Below are positions 10,900 through 56,835 of a stretch of DNA of 64,000 bases, piece by piece. The notes beneath the pieces are model-generated. The model was given only the letters and a program-made list of their open reading frames with translations, was not told the origin of the DNA and did not search any database. Origin of the DNA: a bacterium (GTDB lineage: Bacteria > Omnitrophota > Gorgyraeia > Duberdicusellales > 4484-171); assembly GCA_021796115.1 (NCBI GenBank), contig JAJYOP010000001.1, forward strand, positions 119,755 through 183,754, written 5' to 3'. The stretch's first letter is position 1; every line of letters begins with the position of its first letter. Made by a program: the position numbers and the translations under genes.

Positions 10900-11271
10900 T
10901 TGATGATCGAAAGGCGCAAGTTTGATAGAGTATTTAAATCATCAATTGTGAGATTTAGATTTTTTAAAAGCCACCTCGGCATGTCTTCCCGTTGCGAGAA
11001 CATTTGTGAGGAAGGTATGCGCTTGGTTGCTCTCCAAAGGCTCTCACCCGGCATGATGCTTAATCTAAATTTCCAATTGGAAGAATTAGGCCCGCCAATT
11101 TTAGCTTCCGCCAAAGTGATATGGCAAAACAACAGGGATAATATTTACTATCCCTTTGCGGTAGGATTAAAATTCACCAAAATAAGTTCTGCCGACCGCG
11201 AAAGAATCGCTAGTTACATAAAAACAGCAAGCAGAGAAAACCCTTCTAATGCCCCTAAAGTCGTCCGTTAA
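10900..11271 (+). CDS. Stand-alone PilZ domain protein
   Basis: RRKFDR (RxxxR) near the N-terminus and a NICEEG variant of D/NxSxxG. Confidence 0.65.
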   Translation: MMIERRKFDRVFKSSIVRFRFFKSHLGMSSRCENICEEGMRLVALQRLSPGMMLNLNFQLEELGPPILASAKVIWQNNRDNIYYPFAVGLKFTKISSADRERIASYIKTASRENPSNAPKVVR

Positions 11272-11639: not shown

Positions 11640-11692
11640 TTGGGATTAGGCATAATTCTATATGAAAAACATACAATATCAAATTGTTAGGA

Positions 11693-11715
11693 AAATTTCT
11701 CCCAGGGAAAAATTT
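11693..11715. promoter_or_regulatory. 23-bp palindrome AAATTTCTCCC-A-GGGAAAAATTT (candidate operator)
   Basis: One mismatch between the half sites. Centred ~60 nt upstream of the inferred riboswitch transcription start. A related site lies at 12911-12931. Confidence 0.5.
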
Positions 11716-11727
11716 AGGAAAGTAGCC

Positions 11728-11758
11728 TTGCAATCTTGTTAAATATATGTTATACAAT
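11728..11758 (+). promoter_or_regulatory. Sigma70-like promoter of riboswitch cassette 1
   Basis: TTGCAA-N17-TATACAAT. A 32-nt block AATCTTGTTAAATATATGTTATACAATAAATG is identical at 52039-52070. Confidence 0.6.
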
Positions 11759-11789
11759 AAATGGTAAGGTAGTTCTTCAAAATTTATAG

Positions 11790-11937
11790 GAAAAAAGCTA
11801 ATCCTGAGAAACCAGGTGGCGCAACCCACGAACCAGAACATAGTTCGATTCGGTGGGTTGCCCGGCACCGAATTTATTCTGGTGCTGGGCAAAGCTTAAA
11901 GAGCCTAAAGCCGTAAGGCTATGGTAGTCAGCTGCCG
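11790..11937 (+). promoter_or_regulatory. GEMM-I-like cyclic-dinucleotide riboswitch aptamer, copy 1 (carries a ~66-nt insertion)
   Basis: AGCTAATCC..GAAA..GGCGCAA[insert]AAGCTTAAAGAGCCTAAAGCCGTAAGGCTATGGTAGTCAGCTGCCG resembles the Vc2 core GGCAAACC..GAAA..GGGACGCAAAGCC..GGCCTAAACC..CCGGTAGGTAGCGGGG. Confidence 0.65.
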
Positions 11938-11954
11938 TAAAATACAGAATGTTT

Positions 11955-11986
11955 AAAGCCCATAGTTTTGACTATGGGCTTTTTTG
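11955..11986 (+). terminator. Intrinsic terminator (riboswitch expression platform)
   Basis: AAAGCCCATAG-loop-CTATGGGCTTT followed by a T-run. Confidence 0.85.
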
Positions 11987-12129
11987 TTTGAGCAGGCAAT
12001 CTATGCTTGCTCTTACCGCAAGCGCAGGAGTTTGCATCCGGACCTAATCCCTTTTGCCAGAATTCTACGGGCTTTGTCCGTGCGGGTTCCAGGTTTTCAA
12101 AAATTGGCAAACTCCAGAAAATTTTACTT

Positions 12130-12158
12130 TTGATAACAAAGAAAAATTGTAATACAAT
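12130..12158 (+). promoter_or_regulatory. Sigma70-like promoter proximal to pilin 1
   Basis: TTGATA-N17-TACAAT, 25 nt upstream of the GGAGGG Shine-Dalgarno. Confidence 0.55.
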
Positions 12159-12182: not shown

Positions 12183-12548
12183 ATGAGAAATAAAAAAGGT
12201 TTTACGCTTATCGAATTAGTCATGGTTATTGTTATCCTGGGTATTTTGGCAGTAGTGGCCGCACCAAAGTATTTTAACCTTTCAGCATCCGCCAACCAGG
12301 CAGCAGAACAGGGTGTAGTGGGCGGAGTAAGGTCCGGTATCTCGAGTTATTTTGCGCAGAATAAAGCTTATCCTCTAACCCTGGACGCAGCTCTACCTGT
12401 TGCCTGTAGTACAGCAAACGCATGTTTTACAAACGTTCTCTCGCAGGGCGGTATCACTTCCCAATGGACAAAGGTTAGTAATACCCTTTATAGAGGGCCG
12501 ACTGGTACATCATACACTTATACTGTCGCAGATGGCTCGTTTCAATAA
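12183..12548 (+). CDS. Type IV pilin (paralog 1, canonical Gly at -1)
   Basis: Prepilin leader MRNKKG|FTLIELVMVIVILGILA with Glu+5; Cys-x6-Cys pair in the C-terminal part. Confidence 0.85.
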   Translation: MRNKKGFTLIELVMVIVILGILAVVAAPKYFNLSASANQAAEQGVVGGVRSGISSYFAQNKAYPLTLDAALPVACSTANACFTNVLSQGGITSQWTKVSNTLYRGPTGTSYTYTVADGSFQ

Positions 12549-12700: not shown

Positions 12701-12910
12701 GAAATCACCATACCTACAAAGTAAGAATAGCCATAACTACTAAAAACCGCCCTTAACAGCACACCGTATTATCGGCCCCTTAGCTAAAAAATATTCCGGC
12801 AGTTGGCAAATATAAAAATGATTAAGCAATAGAATAATACCAGAGGCAGCAGACAACAAATTCGCCTCTAGGGAGTAAATCCGGCGTATACTTTATCAAA
12901 CTGTTGGGAG

Positions 12911-12931
12911 AATTTCTCTCAGGGAAAAATT
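12911..12931. promoter_or_regulatory. Second copy of the TTTCTC-N-GGGAAAAATT palindrome
   Basis: AATTTCTCTC-A-GGGAAAAATT, ~50 nt upstream of the extended -10 promoter in front of pilB. Confidence 0.45.
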
Positions 12932-16079: not shown

Positions 16080-16448
16080 ATGAGAAAGAAAAAAAGTTTT
16101 ACGCTTATCGAGTTAGTCATGGTTATTGTTATCCTGGGTATTTTAGCAATAGTGGCCGTACCAAAATATATTGATCTTTCAGGCCAAGCCAATCAGGCAG
16201 CAGAGCAGGGTGTTTTGGGCGGAGTCAGGTCCGGTATATCGACGTATTTTGCGCAGTTTAAAGCTTATCCAGCAACCTTGGATTCAGTTCCAATTCTTAC
16301 TTCCTGTAGTACCGCAAATCCATGTTTTACAAACGTTCTCTCGCAGGGCGGTGTTACTTCCCAATGGACAAAGACTAGTAATACCCTTTATAGAGGGCCG
16401 ACTGGTACATCATACACTTATAACTCTGCAGCTGGGACATTCCAATAA
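16080..16448 (+). CDS. Type IV pilin (paralog 2, Ser at -1)
   Basis: MRKKKS|FTLIELVMVIVILGILA; highly similar to 12183 and 16717. Confidence 0.8.
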   Translation: MRKKKSFTLIELVMVIVILGILAIVAVPKYIDLSGQANQAAEQGVLGGVRSGISTYFAQFKAYPATLDSVPILTSCSTANPCFTNVLSQGGVTSQWTKTSNTLYRGPTGTSYTYNSAAGTFQ

Positions 16449-24644: not shown

Positions 24645-26606
24645 ATGAAGATATCGGGCACACAAAAACAATCAAAGCGCAGAGATTTTAAGGAACTTAA
24701 ATATAAATATCAGCTGCTGAGAAACCTGATGGATTTCATCCCCGATGTTATCTATTTTAAAGATAGAAAAGGCAGGTTTATTATGGTGAATCAGGCTCAT
24801 GCCAAAGGCTTGGGAGTAAAGCCCGAAACGCTGATAGGAAAGACTGACTTTGATATTTTCCCCAAAGAGAGGGCAACGAGAATGGTTCAGGATGACGAAC
24901 GGGTTATGGCTTGCGGCAAGCCCATAATCGATAAAATAGAGCGGGCTACCCGGCCGGATGGCGTAGATAATTATGTTTCCACGACCAAGATTCCGCGTTA
25001 TGACCATCAAGGCAAAGTTATAGGCCTTATTGGGATTACCAGGGATATTACCCGGCGTATGCAGTTTGAACGAATGAAAAGAGATAAAATAAACATAGAA
25101 AAGAAGCTCGAGTCTCTCAGAGAACTCAATGCGATGAAGTCAGAGTTTGTCTCTACTGTTTCTCACGAACTGCGCACCCCCCTGGCGATAATCAAGCAGT
25201 TAATCACGCTTATCCTTAATGAAACTGTCGGAAAACTAAAGGATAAGCAGAAGGAAGTGCTTGTAAAGGTATTGGAAAATTCCGACCGCCTGAAAAAAAT
25301 AATTGATGATTTGCTGGACATCTCCCGCATCGAAAGAAACACCTTAAGGCTTCGCTATTCGCTGGTTGACATTGTAGGCCTGGTTAAAGAATCATCAGGA
25401 TTTTTTACAAAATTAGCCGAAGAGAAAAATATACGCCTGAAATATTCTTATCCTAAAGAAACAATCAATCTTTTCGTCGACGCTGACCGGATAAACCAGG
25501 TCATAGGTAATCTTATCAGCAACGCCATTAAATTCACTGCCGACGGCGGAGAGATAAAGGTAGAGATAAAGATTTTTGAAACAAAAGTCAGATTGGGGTT
25601 CATAGATACCGGCATAGGCATTGCCAAACCTGAGTTGCCCCTAGTATTTAGCAAATTTACCCAGCTTTCTAAGATGCCGGCATCAGAAAATAAAGGCGTA
25701 GGATTAGGGCTGGCGATATGCAAGGATTTGGTTGAAAAACATAAAGGAGAAATTTGGGTTGAATCCAAAGTCGGAGTGGGGAGTAGGTTCTATTTCACTT
25801 TACCCCGCTTTTACACTTTCGATATGCTGGACAAAAATATAAGGGAGAAAGTAAGCAACCTGATAAAGAATGGCGTATCCGTATATAATATTACCTTGCT
25901 GATTTTAAATTACACCGAATTCAGGCATAGGTTTAAGATAAGGGCTAAGACGTTATTGGCGGATTTGCGCGTCATTATTGATACGGCGCTAAAATATGAG
26001 CAGGAAGAAAAAGATGCGATGGTCATGGTAAATGCTAAGTTAGGCAAGTTCAGTATTGTTCTTCCCAGAGTGACGGATAAGCTGGCAGTCAAAATTTCAG
26101 AACTGCTTAAATATAAAATAAAGGATTATTTTGTAAAAAATACGATTGAAGATGTTTTTATAACCGTAGGCACATTATCTTATTCGCAGAAAATATTTTC
26201 GCATGGCAAAGGGTCTTCTGCCTCGCAGTTTTCAATTAAAGAAATATATATAGGTTCAGAAACACGGCTTTGTAAGAGAATACCCATTAAAACAACTGTC
26301 AAGCTTTTTCTGGTTGGGGGTAAAATAGAGTTATGCGAATCCGTGGATATTTCGGAGACGGGCATATGTTTATTAACCAGCCAGTTATTGAAAACAGATA
26401 TGCAGGTGAAGTTGAGCATCGCGCTTCCGGAAAATGAGGAGCTTATTATTGTAACAAAAGCGCGGGTAGTTTGGATAAAAAAGAACGAACCCTCACTTCT
26501 TAAAGAGGCTAATCAATACAAGGTAGGCCTGGAATTTATAAGCTTGGCTCCTAAATATACCAAGGCTATCCGCGGAATAGTAAAACGCAACTTTCATAAA
26601 GGTTAG
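24645..26606 (+). CDS. Cytoplasmic PAS sensor histidine kinase with a GGDEF-like degenerate middle region and a C-terminal PilZ domain
   Basis: PAS (FIPDVIYFKDRKGRFIMVN), H-box SHELRTPL, HATPase GVGLGLAICKDLVEKHKGEIWVES. C-terminal PilZ has RLCKR (RxxxR) + DISETG (DxSxxG) from nt ~26259. Confidence 0.8.
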   Translation: MKISGTQKQSKRRDFKELKYKYQLLRNLMDFIPDVIYFKDRKGRFIMVNQAHAKGLGVKPETLIGKTDFDIFPKERATRMVQDDERVMACGKPIIDKIERATRPDGVDNYVSTTKIPRYDHQGKVIGLIGITRDITRRMQFERMKRDKINIEKKLESLRELNAMKSEFVSTVSHELRTPLAIIKQLITLILNETVGKLKDKQKEVLVKVLENSDRLKKIIDDLLDISRIERNTLRLRYSLVDIVGLVKESSGFFTKLAEEKNIRLKYSYPKETINLFVDADRINQVIGNLISNAIKFTADGGEIKVEIKIFETKVRLGFIDTGIGIAKPELPLVFSKFTQLSKMPASENKGVGLGLAICKDLVEKHKGEIWVESKVGVGSRFYFTLPRFYTFDMLDKNIREKVSNLIKNGVSVYNITLLILNYTEFRHRFKIRAKTLLADLRVIIDTALKYEQEEKDAMVMVNAKLGKFSIVLPRVTDKLAVKISELLKYKIKDYFVKNTIEDVFITVGTLSYSQKIFSHGKGSSASQFSIKEIYIGSETRLCKRIPIKTTVKLFLVGGKIELCESVDISETGICLLTSQLLKTDMQVKLSIALPENEELIIVTKARVVWIKKNEPSLLKEANQYKVGLEFISLAPKYTKAIRGIVKRNFHKG

Positions 26607-39363: not shown

Positions 39364-40113
39364 ATGTTTTTAAGATTCTTAAACGCGAGGACGATTCTAG
39401 AAATAATTATACTCTGGGCCGTTATATACCGGGTATTGGTTTCTTTGAAAGGAACGAGGGGCGTTTATATTATAAGAGGAATTATCGTTTTGATAATTTC
39501 TTATTTTATCTTCCAGAAATTAGGGCTTACGGTATTAATCTGGCTGCTTACCAATTTTTTCGCCTTTTACTTGATAATTATCGTTGTAATATTCCAGCCT
39601 GAATTGCGCGAGGCGCTCATAAAATTAGGCCAGCGCCATATTTTTTATAAAGGCCTGGGTAAAGAAGAGATAGAAAAAATATTAAGAGAAATCGTTTCTG
39701 CAGTAAGTATTCTTTCCAGGAAAAAAATAGGCGCACTTATCGCCATTAAAAGGGAAATGGGCCTTAAAGATTATATAGAAAGCGGCGTTATGGTTAACGC
39801 AGATTTGAGCTCTGAATTATTGCAAAATATATTTCATCCGCTGGCGCCTCTTCATGATGGAGGAGTTATCGTCGAAGGTCCAAAAATAGTTGCTGCCTCC
39901 TGTCTTTTTCCGCACAGCGACAGTTTGAATCTTGAAAAAGGCATAGGCATGCGTCATCGTTCAGGTATAGGGCTTTCCGAACATTCGGATGCCCTTGTGG
40001 TAATTGTTTCAGAGGAGAATGGGCACATATCTTTGGCGATAAATGGCCAATTAACCGGAGACTTAACTTCGGATGATCTCCTTACCATTTTGAAAGGGCA
40101 ATTAAGCAAATGA
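39364..40113 (+). CDS. cdaA: Diadenylate cyclase (membrane-anchored CdaA type)
   Basis: Three N-terminal TM helices; DAC domain motifs HDGGVIV and GMRHRSGIGLSE. Confidence 0.88.
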   Translation: MFLRFLNARTILEIIILWAVIYRVLVSLKGTRGVYIIRGIIVLIISYFIFQKLGLTVLIWLLTNFFAFYLIIIVVIFQPELREALIKLGQRHIFYKGLGKEEIEKILREIVSAVSILSRKKIGALIAIKREMGLKDYIESGVMVNADLSSELLQNIFHPLAPLHDGGVIVEGPKIVAASCLFPHSDSLNLEKGIGMRHRSGIGLSEHSDALVVIVSEENGHISLAINGQLTGDLTSDDLLTILKGQLSK

Positions 40114-45529: not shown

Positions 45530-45895
45530 ATGGATAAATATAAGGGCGAAGAGCGAAGAAAATTTCCAAGAGCAAATGCAAATTTTGTTGTAAGTTATAG
45601 ACTAAAAGAACATCCTGGTACTTATGATCTTAGCCAGACAAAAAATGTAAGCCAGGGGGGAATGCTTATTACCACAAATAAAAAATTTGATAATGGTATA
45701 CAATTGGCAATGACAATAAGGTTTCCGTTTGTTAACCAGAAAATAGAAGTTACAGCAGAAGTTATTGATTCAAAAGAAATAGTTAAAGGCTTAATATATG
45801 AAACACGTTTAAAATTTGTGGATTTGCCAGACGGATTTTTTAAAGAACTTGGCGACTTTATAAAGGAGTTATTAGAAAGATGGTCAAAAAAATAG
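45530..45895 (+). CDS. Stand-alone PilZ domain protein
   Basis: RRKFPR (RxxxR) and NVSQGG (D/NxSxxG). Confidence 0.75.
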   Translation: MDKYKGEERRKFPRANANFVVSYRLKEHPGTYDLSQTKNVSQGGMLITTNKKFDNGIQLAMTIRFPFVNQKIEVTAEVIDSKEIVKGLIYETRLKFVDLPDGFFKELGDFIKELLERWSKK

Positions 45896-52034: not shown

Positions 52035-52065
52035 TTGTAATCTTGTTAAATATATGTTATACAAT
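52035..52065 (+). promoter_or_regulatory. Sigma70-like promoter of riboswitch cassette 2
   Basis: TTGTAA-N17-TATACAAT; near-identical to 11728-11758. Confidence 0.6.
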
Positions 52066-52097
52066 AAATGACAAACCAGTTCTTTAAAATTTATACG

Positions 52098-52176
52098 AAA
52101 AAAGCTAACCTTGGGAAATCAGGGGGCGCAAAGCTTAAAGAGCCTAAAGCCATAAGGCTATGGTAGTCAGCTGCCG
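52098..52176 (+). promoter_or_regulatory. GEMM-I-like cyclic-dinucleotide riboswitch aptamer, copy 2 (compact)
   Basis: AAAAGCTAACCTTGGGAAATCAGGGGGCGCAAAGCTTAAAGAGCCTAAAGCCATAAGGCTATGGTAGTCAGCTGCCG aligns by eye with the Vibrio cholerae Vc2 core. Confidence 0.75.
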
Positions 52177-52195
52177 TTATTTTATTTGAAAGGTT

Positions 52196-52226
52196 AAACC
52201 CATAGCTTGTAGCTATGGGTTTTTTA
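52196..52226 (+). terminator. Intrinsic terminator (riboswitch expression platform)
   Basis: AAACCCATAGC-loop-GCTATGGGTTT followed by a T-run. Confidence 0.85.
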
Positions 52227-52290
52227 TTGAAAACCCCACTCGCAATTCGACCAGGTCTTTTTGCAAAGCAAAAAGACAGTCTCATTGCTC

Positions 52291-52355
52291 GGGGGTAATT
52301 CGCACTTGTCTTTTTTCAGACAGGAGTCTGAAAAAAGACTGTGCTCATTAGGAGG
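52291..52355 (+). promoter_or_regulatory. Conserved leader hairpin, copy 3
   Basis: GGGGGTAATTCGCAC, perfect 13-bp stem GTCTTTTTTCAGA / TCTGAAAAAAGAC, GTGCTCATT, AGGAGG Shine-Dalgarno. A related module (AATTCGAC..GTCTCATT) lies at 52244-52288. Confidence 0.6.
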
Positions 52356-52360
52356 TGGCT

Positions 52361-52696
52361 ATGTTAAGGAAAGCCGTGGGTTTACTTATTGTGTGTTTAA
52401 TGGTTATGTCAGTGAGCGCATTTGCCGAAGACAATAATGCGCTTGCTAAATTGGGCAGAGGGTTAACCAATGCCGTGACAGGAGTAGTAGAAATTCCAAA
52501 GCAAATTTATCTTGTTTCGCAGGAGAAAGAACCCATCACAGGCATTACTTATGGCACAGCCAAAGGTATATGCTATGGGTTAATGCGTACGGCAGCCGGA
52601 GTTTATGACACCCTTGCTTTCGCAATCCCTCCTTATGATAAACCGGTTATGGAGCCTGCATTTGTGTTTGAAGGATGGCAGGCGGAGAAAAAGTAA
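52361..52696 (+). CDS. Small secreted protein resembling the exosortase-system-associated TIGR04073 family
   Basis: Start moved to the ATG 5 nt after the Shine-Dalgarno. Signal peptide; KLGRGLTNAVTGVVEIPKQIY, GTAKGICYGLMRTAAGVYDTLAF, EPAFVF. Confidence 0.6.
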   Translation: MLRKAVGLLIVCLMVMSVSAFAEDNNALAKLGRGLTNAVTGVVEIPKQIYLVSQEKEPITGITYGTAKGICYGLMRTAAGVYDTLAFAIPPYDKPVMEPAFVFEGWQAEKK

Positions 52697-55837: not shown

Positions 55838-56494
55838 TTATATTTTCCGTAAAAACGATTCAGCAATTTTTCTTTTGCGCTTAAGGCAATATAAATTAGG
55901 TTTATAATAAAGCCACTGAAGAAGCTTTAAAGACTCTTTTTTGGCAAAGCGCAATTTATGCATATTTGTTTTATCCTTTTTATAGGTGCTTATGTCGCCT
56001 CTTATATTAATAATTTTTTTTAATTTATAGGAAATCCATTTTATATGTTTTTGGCTTGCAGACAGAAAATTAACATACAATCTTTTGTAAATATATTTTG
56101 GATTCTTAAAAGTGTTATATTTATCTTCGTATGTGGCTATAGACCCGTCACCATCTAAATGTCCTCTTAGAAAATCCGCTAAAAATTTATGAGGTATTTT
56201 TATAGCTTTTATCCGAAAAGTCTTACGTGGCATCAGACCAATAGAGATAAGCCAATTATAAAAGCATACATTTCCAAACTGAATCCTATAACATTGTCTT
56301 TTTGTGTAGCCGCCTTTAGGATTTTTAGTAATCTTATTTTTTAGATTTAAGCATTTACGAAAAGTATATAAAAGTTGTTTATCTGAAGAAGTAATGCTGA
56401 TGTGTCTTTTATCTGAAGATAAGTTTCCGTCAGTTGTGATGAGGCCAACTGCATAGGCTAGGTTTGATGTCCATTTGAAACATCTAATGCCCAT
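55838..56494 (-). CDS. LAGLIDADG-family homing endonuclease (two-motif, single chain)
   Basis: LAYAVGLITTDGNL and FLRGHLDGDGSI. Start set at MGIRCFKW, because the upstream part of the tracked ORF runs through tRNA-Leu. Confidence 0.75.
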   Translation of the reverse strand: MGIRCFKWTSNLAYAVGLITTDGNLSSDKRHISITSSDKQLLYTFRKCLNLKNKITKNPKGGYTKRQCYRIQFGNVCFYNWLISIGLMPRKTFRIKAIKIPHKFLADFLRGHLDGDGSIATYEDKYNTFKNPKYIYKRLYVNFLSASQKHIKWISYKLKKIINIRGDISTYKKDKTNMHKLRFAKKESLKLLQWLYYKPNLYCLKRKRKIAESFLRKI

Positions 56495-56508
56495 AAATTG
56501 GGAATAAA

Positions 56509-56592
56509 TGCCGAAGGAGGGAGTTGAACCCTCATGGAGTTGCCCCCATCGGTTTTTGAGACCGACTTGTATGCCAGTTCCAACACTTCGGC
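56509..56592 (-). tRNA. tRNA-Leu (CAA)
   Basis: Class II cloverleaf folded by hand: acceptor GCCGAAG/CTTCGGC, anticodon loop CTCAAAA, long variable arm, T-arm GAGGG-TTCAACT-CCCTC. Uninterrupted. Confidence 0.88.
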
Positions 56593-56762
56593 AAAGCAAA
56601 AAGATGATAACATCCTTGATTTTCTTTGTCAATTGACAACTTCTTTGCATAATGATATGATTTCTCTCGTTGTTCGTTCACTAACTTCTTAAGGCACTTC
56701 GGCGAGCGCGCCTCAGTGCCGATAAAAAATAAGGTATAACCCTAAATAATTGCTTTTTTATC

Positions 56763-56835
56763 GGGGCCGTAGTACAGTTGGGAGTACGCTTGCATGGCAT
56801 GCAAGAGGTCGGGGGTTCAAATCCCCCCGGCTCCA
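56763..56835 (+). tRNA. tRNA-Ala (GGC)
   Basis: Acceptor GGGGCCG/CGGCTCC with the G3:U70 identity pair, anticodon loop ATGGCAT. Confidence 0.85.

Follow-up and report, generated by a model that had tools for sequence, protein, structure and literature searches.

In c-di-GMP-I (GEMM-I) riboswitches, the ligand is contacted by nucleotides G20, A47, and C92, of which G20 marks the c-di-GMP-selective pocket and not the fold. As first described, the aptamer has a P1 stem consisting of 2 bp, a highly conserved 3-nt internal loop, and a further 6 bp, a P1-P2 linker that is AAA in 320 of 322 cases, and a P2 stem that carries a tetraloop receptor when the loop of P1 is GAAA (PMC1950547). In Vc2, G20 contacts the alpha guanine of the ligand (PMC6140456), and position 20 is the main published determinant of specificity, the A/A/C triple at the three contact positions being typical of cGAMP riboswitches (PMC6456294, PMC9481103). 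In the Gmet_0970 riboswitch, the change A20G shifts selectivity from cGAMP to c-di-GMP (PMC6456294), and a paralogous aptamer from Desulfobacca acetoxidans that has A20 binds cGAMP markedly better and c-di-GMP slightly worse (PMC9481103). RNAs with A20 are often bispecific, and they keep nanomolar binding of c-di-GMP through a protonated adenine that pairs with guanine: the affinities of Vc2 G20A are 53 nM for c-di-GMP and 120 nM for cGAMP, those of the natural Cbe 1-2 aptamer are 30 nM and 463 nM, respectively, and the outer stem adds to selectivity (PMC6140456).

The stretch of DNA analyzed here (the window, 64,000 nucleotides) is part of a 283-kb metagenome-assembly contig from a bacterium of the phylum Omnitrophota. 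It contains two GEMM-I elements in leaders that are homologous from promoter to terminator (alignment A1). At both loci promoter, aptamer, terminator, and gene follow one another on the same strand, a 5' regulatory position with an expression platform. The features are listed below; R1 is the lineage model described in the text that follows.

11728..11756 (+), putative promoter of leader 1: -35 TTGCAA at 11728-11733, 17-nt spacer, extended -10 TGTTATACA at 11748-11756; read from the sequence by its near-identity to the leader 2 promoter (alignment A1) and absent from the consensus-scan list
11784..11940 (+), aptamer 1: GEMM-I with a 68-nt insert; A20, U23, A47, C92, GAAA tetraloop, 11-nt receptor
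11796 (+), A20 of aptamer 1: from the R1 alignment and a pair check
11821..11888 (+), two-hairpin insert: hairpin H1 at 11821-11861 and hairpin H2 at 11862-11888; a gap in alignment A1
11917..11924 (+), P2 3' strand of aptamer 1, GGCUAUGG: complementary to the terminator 5' strand CCAUAGU at 11960-11966; candidate antiterminator
11955..11988 (+), intrinsic terminator of leader 1: 12-bp stem, then a U tract
12183..12548 (+), prepilin-type pilin/pseudopilin gene: follows leader 1; extra copy with 79% identity to the pilin at 16080-16448
52035..52063 (+), putative promoter of leader 2: -35 TTGTAA at 52035-52040, extended -10 TGTTATACA at 52055-52063; from alignment A1, conserved in orthologues
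52091..52179 (+), aptamer 2: complete GEMM-I; A20, U23, A47, C92, GAAA tetraloop, receptor
52103 (+), A20 of aptamer 2: from the RF01051 and R1 alignments and a pair check
52156..52163 (+), P2 3' strand of aptamer 2, GGCUAUGG: complementary to the terminator 5' strand CCAUAGCU at 52200-52207; candidate antiterminator
52196..52228 (+), intrinsic terminator of leader 2: 12-bp stem, then a U tract
52361..52696 (+), gene for a secreted TIGR04073-family "exosortase system-associated" protein: NCBIfam TIGR04073, 90.7 bits against a cut-off of 50

The TGTTATA core of the leader promoter is conserved in orthologous leaders. The pilin gene behind leader 1 is followed by a cluster that encodes PilB/GspE, PilC, pilins, PilMN, and a secretin. 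Upstream of the leader 1 promoter, at 11690-11715, there is a near-palindromic 25-mer, GGAAAATTTCTCCCAGGGAAAAATT. A second copy that matches it at 23 of 25 positions is present at 12906-12931 and is followed by a promoter-like TTGTGATATAAT that precedes PilB, so that the two copies may represent a common operator. Elsewhere in the window, an ORF at 55838-56650 (-) gives a faint LAGLIDADG_3 hit and adjoins tRNA genes at 56509-56592 (-) and 56763-56835 (+); it may be what is left of a homing endonuclease.

Aptamer 2 matches the Rfam model RF01051 at 52093-52178 (+) with 65.5 bits, against a gathering score of 35. Position 11 of this model is the conserved unpaired G immediately 5' of the two-pair P1a "GC" and is equivalent to G20 of Vc2, and the Rfam alignment of aptamer 2 assigns A52103 to it with the top posterior probability. 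In aptamer 1, Rfam aligned the 3' half alone (11871-11939), at 32.1 bits and under the threshold of 35, because ~68 extra nucleotides interrupt P1. A lineage model for numbering aptamer 1, R1, was prepared from 13 canonical Omnitrophota aptamers with the window sequences left out. The structure of R1 comprises 23 pairs, with 94% of the cells paired and 12 pairs showing compensatory change, values that are reached in none of 500 shuffles. R1 matches aptamer 1 over its full length (11784-11940) with 58.8 bits and an E value of 2.6e-12 and aligns its "GAAAAAAGCUAA" to "GAuAAaGGcAAA", which places A11796 in the G20 column; it matches aptamer 2 with 97.4 bits and places A52103 in the same column. 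The preliminary description had read an A at the G20-equivalent position of both aptamers from a hand alignment and had named a covariance-model alignment as the check on the numbering. Its quoted strings and coordinates are exact, and the models put A, not G, in the G20 column of both copies.

The other two contact nucleotides are kept, A47 at 11891 in aptamer 1 and at 52130 in aptamer 2 and C92 at 11935 and 52174, so that both aptamers have the contact triple A/A/C. Compared with the c-di-GMP-I set G20/A47/C92, they depart at position 20 and agree at the other two, and both have the full nucleotide combination of GEMM-Ib, A20 with A47 and C92. The equivalents of C44 and G83, the GAAA tetraloop, and the 11-nt receptor are also present in both. 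A second core change common to the two copies is a U in place of the conserved A23 (GCUAAC versus GCAAAC; U23 at 11799 and 52106), which sits in the internal loop described as highly conserved (PMC1950547). We found no description of an A20 aptamer with the additional A23U change in the literature searched.

The two copies are not equally well preserved. All 23 model pairs of aptamer 2 are standard, and it has the GAAA loop, the AAA linker, and the receptor strands CCUAAA...UAUGG; this aptamer, which precedes the TIGR04073 gene, looks fully functional. Three of the 23 pairs are broken in aptamer 1, two of the six in P1b (mismatches U.U and A.C) and one in P0 (G.G), and one of the three is pair 19-34, which is C-G in 13 of 13 orthologues. 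Its layout is otherwise that of aptamer 2, with 68 nt added between the equivalents of C44 and G45. Given this interruption and partial erosion, aptamer 1 may be a weakened or decaying sensor. No third GEMM-I copy was detected in the window at E ≤ 0.05, nor with R1 in the window and its flanks; A20 is present in both GEMM-I copies of the 84 kb examined.

Both aptamers share with Vc2 and the RF01051 family the two-hairpin fold (P1 with 2 bp, a 3-nt loop, 6 bp, and GAAA, followed by the AAA linker), a P2 with the 11-nt receptor, the nucleotides A47, C92, C44, and G83, and a place in 5' leaders that contain an intrinsic terminator and precede surface- or pilus-protein genes. They differ from Vc2 and the family in A20 and U23 and, in aptamer 1, in the insert on the 3' side of the P1 loop. 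In the common GEMM arrangement, the terminator overlaps P2 (PMC1950547), whereas in the window there is no overlap and the terminator is instead complementary to the P2 3' strand. With the GEMM-Ib riboswitches of Geobacter (Gs1761 and Gm0970), they share the fold, the A at the alpha-base contact, A47, and C92, and one window copy likewise has a pilus-related gene downstream. Unlike the Geobacter RNAs, they occur in the phylum Omnitrophota and have orthologues with G20 in sister species, and neither a Hypr-GGDEF synthase, the type with Ser at the position of GacA residue 348, nor a DncV-type synthase was found in the window and the 10 kb on each side of it. The resemblance extends to Vc2 G20A, the Cbe 1-2 aptamer of Clostridium beijerinckii, and the cluster-3 aptamer of D. 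acetoxidans, each of which has a single G20A change in a c-di-GMP-type background (PMC6140456, PMC9481103). As with the natural and engineered bispecific A20 aptamers, the window copies stand beside G20 relatives; affinities have been measured for the bispecific RNAs, whereas the window aptamers are known from sequence alone. Both elements belong to a known kind of riboswitch and show a known type of natural variation, A20, which has not been discussed for this phylum.

The history of the substitution can be followed in orthologous leaders. Homologues of the TIGR04073 protein behind leader 2 carry the name Candidatus Omnitrophota, and 13 Omnitrophota loci in GTDB that have a TIGR04073 orthologue carry an RF01051 match upstream of it; no such match was detected at the TIGR04073 homologues found in Verrucomicrobiota, Nitrospirota, and Geobacteraceae in GTDB. 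A 12-sequence alignment was used in the scan for related loci. The pattern used to scan metagenomes was taken from the 3' half of the aptamer and is hence blind to position 20; it gave eight more loci, some with an aptamer region identical to that of GTDB loci. Together with the closest relative found (locus L036), the GTDB and metagenome loci provide 19 distinct aptamers besides those of the window. G20 is present in 18 of these (..A(A/G)GGCAAAC..), some of which have a compensated GU..AC variant of P1a. The single aptamer with A20, that of locus L010, reads GAUAAGAGCAAAC and has the normal A23. L036, whose protein is 86% identical and whose locus is syntenic with the same promoter, has G20 and reads ACGAAAAGGGCAAAC, as compared with ACGAAAAAAGCUAAC in the window, which indicates that A20 is derived and recent in the window genome. 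Judged from these sequences, A20 has arisen at least twice in this aptamer set. U23 is private to the window genome, and the combination of A20 and U23 was found there only. A20 is not maintained among orthologues of the lineage as it is in the Geobacter regulons, L010 alone sharing it.

Other departures from the common form were seen in the same set of loci. In the L010 aptamer (L010:1231-1406), which belongs to a second Omnitrophota lineage, A20 is accompanied by an insert of 85 nt and by a receptor of variant sequence (CCUAAU...CUACGG). RF03167, the c-di-GMP-I-GGC variant, has a match in another Omnitrophota MAG at L022:770-854, where the score of 59.4 bits just passes the threshold of 59. 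This match precedes a TIGR04073-like gene, and an ordinary RF01051 aptamer lies nearby on the opposite strand at 1905-2000. Extra hairpins 5' of the G20 position are present at L039:2542-2600 (-) and L015:1250-1310, and that of L039 is flanked by the short direct repeat GGTA.

The two window leaders have in common the promoter (TTG(C/T)AATCTTGTTAAATATATGTTATACAAT), the A20/U23 core, and the P2 variant GCUUAAAGAGCC, the last of which is absent from orthologues. In two related operons, with PilB proteins that are 74-77% identical, a PAS-HisKA-PilZ kinase and a response regulator directly precede PilB; no pilin intervenes, and no GEMM-I was detected by R1 in the parts of these loci that were scanned. 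The shared promoter, core, and P2 variant, the extra pilin, and the bare related operons suggest that the riboswitch-pilin cassette is a lineage-specific duplicate. The presence of A20 in both window aptamers is therefore probably the result of one recent event and not of independent changes. A riboswitch before orthologues of the pilin was also sought elsewhere, but the pilin homologues found were the pilins that follow PilC. In the window the kinase-PilZ gene follows the secretin gene, whereas in the relatives it is directly upstream of PilB, which indicates that the pilus locus has been rearranged.

The insert of aptamer 1 folds as two adjacent hairpins (-34.6 kcal/mol) and lies between the C44 equivalent (11820) and the P1a 3' strand GC (11889-11890). 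Where exactly it begins and ends is uncertain by 4 nt, since GCAA occurs both at 11821-11824 and at 11889-11892. R1 pairs G21-C22 (11797-11798) with the GC at 11889-11890, past the insert, which would place the insert on the 3' arm of the internal loop of P1 and leave the GC-AAA-GC junction with A47 intact. A homologous insert, ~85% identical by eye, is present at the same site in L007:1065-1131 (the same as L043) in a G20 background, and hairpin 2 differs between the two by a compensatory change of C-G to A-U and a change of G.U to G-C. Inserts also occupy this site in L010, L012, L015, and L042, each folding as two hairpins; that of L010 shares the motif CCCACGAACC with the window insert. 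Altogether, one site of Omnitrophota GEMM-I aptamers bears inserts of 31-85 nt that represent four or five unrelated sequences. The aptamers that contain them score 32-47 bits, at or below the Rfam gathering score, and it is the insert that makes aptamer 1 escape the threshold. Similar aptamers lacking the insert exist (L041 versus L042 and L038 versus L043), and its gain or loss therefore looks recent.

A second copy of either hairpin was not found in the window with up to three mismatches, a search for an Rfam family matching the insert gave noise only, and we found no description of inserts of this kind in GEMM-I in the literature searched. The flanking repeat GCAA..GCAA would suit a MITE-like element, but unrelated two-hairpin sequences are present at the same site elsewhere. 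They may represent a small mobile element, hairpins whose insertion is tolerated, or a structural module at the periphery.

We propose that both elements are GEMM-I riboswitches that have undergone recent, lineage-specific G20A and A23U changes and that act by termination of transcription. The terminator 5' strand (CCCAUAGY) could pair either with the terminator 3' strand or with the P2 3' strand, GGCUAUGG. Binding of the ligand to the aptamer would lock P2 and free the terminator 5' strand, the terminator would form, and transcription would stop, which would make each element an OFF switch. The antiterminator duplex of leader 2 has a calculated energy of -12.1 kcal/mol, as compared with -5.4 +/- 1.9 for shuffles, and at most of the ~20 loci it is between -9 and -12 kcal/mol, as compared with ~-5 +/- 2 for shuffled strands. 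In the L013/L015 subfamily, the receptor strand (GUAAGG / GUAGGG) and the terminator strand (CCCUAUUCC) co-vary. Folding of leader 2 gives -36.2 kcal/mol when the aptamer is enforced, in which case the terminator forms, and -37.4 kcal/mol when the antiterminator is enforced, and two conformers that are predicted to be so nearly isoenergetic would be a plausible two-state switch. The OFF logic is drawn from this complementarity, for which covariation is limited because the receptor strand is almost invariant. It is the opposite of that in Geobacter, where the transcripts controlled by the riboswitches fall on deletion of gacA, the gene for the cGAMP synthase, in keeping with ON switches (PMC6456294), whereas the logic predicted for the window is OFF.

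Two further elements lie between the terminators and the genes. Between the leader 1 terminator and the start codon of the pilin gene, there is a promoter-like site at 12130-12158 (sigma-70-like, TTGATA-17-TACAAT, 10 of 12 matches) that could bypass the riboswitch, and for this reason aptamer 1 may have only partial or vestigial control over the pilin. In the TIGR04073 leader, a stem-loop at ~52297-52345 lies downstream of the riboswitch terminator and directly upstream of the Shine-Dalgarno sequence. Stem-loops close to the start codon recur in L007, L012, L036, L039, L041, L042, and L044, several of them flanked by AATTCRCA...TGCTCATTRRAGGAGGTG, and may be a second regulatory or stabilizing element.

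The signaling proteins encoded around the aptamers bear on the identity of the ligand. Three PilZ proteins are encoded within the 64 kb (10903-11271, 24645-26606, and 45530-45895). The c-di-GMP motifs RxxxR and (D/N)xSxxG are intact in the PilZ protein of 45530-45895 and at the C terminus of the kinase of 24645-26606, in which PilZ is fused to PAS-HisKA-HATPase; the third protein, 10903-11271, has NxCxxG. The PilB of the window has an MshEN domain. The absence of a cGAMP synthase from the window, reported in the preliminary description, is borne out: there is no GG[DE]EF motif in its six frames and no GGDEF or CD-NTase domain in the precomputed Pfam lists for the window and the 10 kb on each side. 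Within these limits the sole cyclic-dinucleotide synthase seen is a DAC (PF02457) diadenylate cyclase (39364-40113), from which it follows that the organism probably makes c-di-AMP. No diguanylate cyclase was seen in the same span either, and production of c-di-GMP is therefore deduced solely from the presence of its receptors. The genomic context favors c-di-GMP, which most likely is still the physiological ligand. A20 would lower the affinity, thereby retuning the threshold of the response, and would let cGAMP bind in vitro. We assign a probability of roughly 0.55 to the reading that both elements are terminator-type OFF switches that sense c-di-GMP, probably with an altered affinity and with some cross-binding of cGAMP in vitro.

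The changes might instead be neutral or mildly deleterious drift in sensors that are decaying, aptamer 1 above all, with promoters and protein regulators mainly governing expression. The broken pairs of aptamer 1, including the otherwise invariant 19-34, its score under the Rfam threshold, the promoter-like site that separates its terminator from the pilin gene, the lineage-specific duplication that gave rise to the riboswitch-pilin cassette, and the U at A23 are in line with such decay. However, aptamer 2 keeps all of its pairs and every other core nucleotide, as reflected in its R1 score, the terminators and the antiterminator complementarity are intact in both leaders, and G20A alone leaves nanomolar binding in the RNAs that have been tested (PMC6140456). 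Drift is, on balance, an unlikely account of the two elements. Improbable to a similar degree are two bolder interpretations, one in which A20, with or without U23, is a de novo switch to sensing of cGAMP or of both dinucleotides and another in which the insert module defines an undescribed structural subclass of GEMM-I. The switch could have occurred between closely related Omnitrophota species and been wired as an OFF switch. The module could form a four-way junction in P1, the alternative being that the inserts are junk that is simply tolerated.

The preliminary description had gone on from A20 to a possible cGAMP specificity of the GEMM-Ib type. Its alignment was right, and position 20 is the published switch, but neither the genomic context nor the orthologues bear out the specificity. 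For both aptamers to be truly cGAMP-selective, the TIGR04073 and pilin leaders would have been rewired and the synthase would be encoded elsewhere in the genome. The confirmed A20, A47, and C92, the effects of position 20 in Gmet_0970 and D. acetoxidans, the recurrence of A20 in a second Omnitrophota lineage (L010), and the inclusion of pilin genes among the GEMM-Ib targets of Geobacter (PMC6456294) are in accord with this. Against it are the G20 kept in 18 of the 19 other distinct orthologous aptamers, the c-di-GMP receptors at the same locus, and a window and 10-kb flanks in which DAC is the only cyclic-dinucleotide synthase found. Natural and engineered A20 RNAs, moreover, are frequently bispecific or prefer c-di-GMP (PMC6140456), in keeping with the earlier caution that A20 is insufficient by itself for selectivity. 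Hypr GGDEFs have been placed in deltaproteobacteria, for example Geobacter and Myxobacteria (PMC6456294), and none has been reported for Omnitrophota in the literature searched. Selectivity of both aptamers for cGAMP is thus possible but distinctly doubtful. That A20 and U23 reshape the pocket to accommodate a ligand of another kind, for instance a linear or a further cyclic dinucleotide, is highly improbable, for although two changes in the conserved 5' core are common to both copies, GEMM-I variants with changed contacts exist in the Rfam clan (RF03167 in Omnitrophota locus L022 among them), and a diadenylate cyclase gene is present in the window, the combination is confined to the window genome while L010 has A20 with a normal A23, the rest of the pocket is canonical, and no linked gene has changed, the downstream gene being the same as in the G20 relatives.

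On present evidence, the window aptamers are natural G20A versions of a common riboswitch. They are of practical use in that the G20 orthologues, the A20 copies, and the A20 with U23 form a matched natural set for testing the effect of A20. Less expected is the two-hairpin insert that recurs in P1; it is relevant to annotation as well, since it causes real aptamers to fall below the Rfam threshold. If the aptamers were truly cGAMP-selective, riboswitch-based cGAMP signaling would be extended to a mostly uncultivated phylum, and a switch of specificity would have been caught between near-identical orthologues, with G in the relative whose protein is 86% identical and A in the genome described here.
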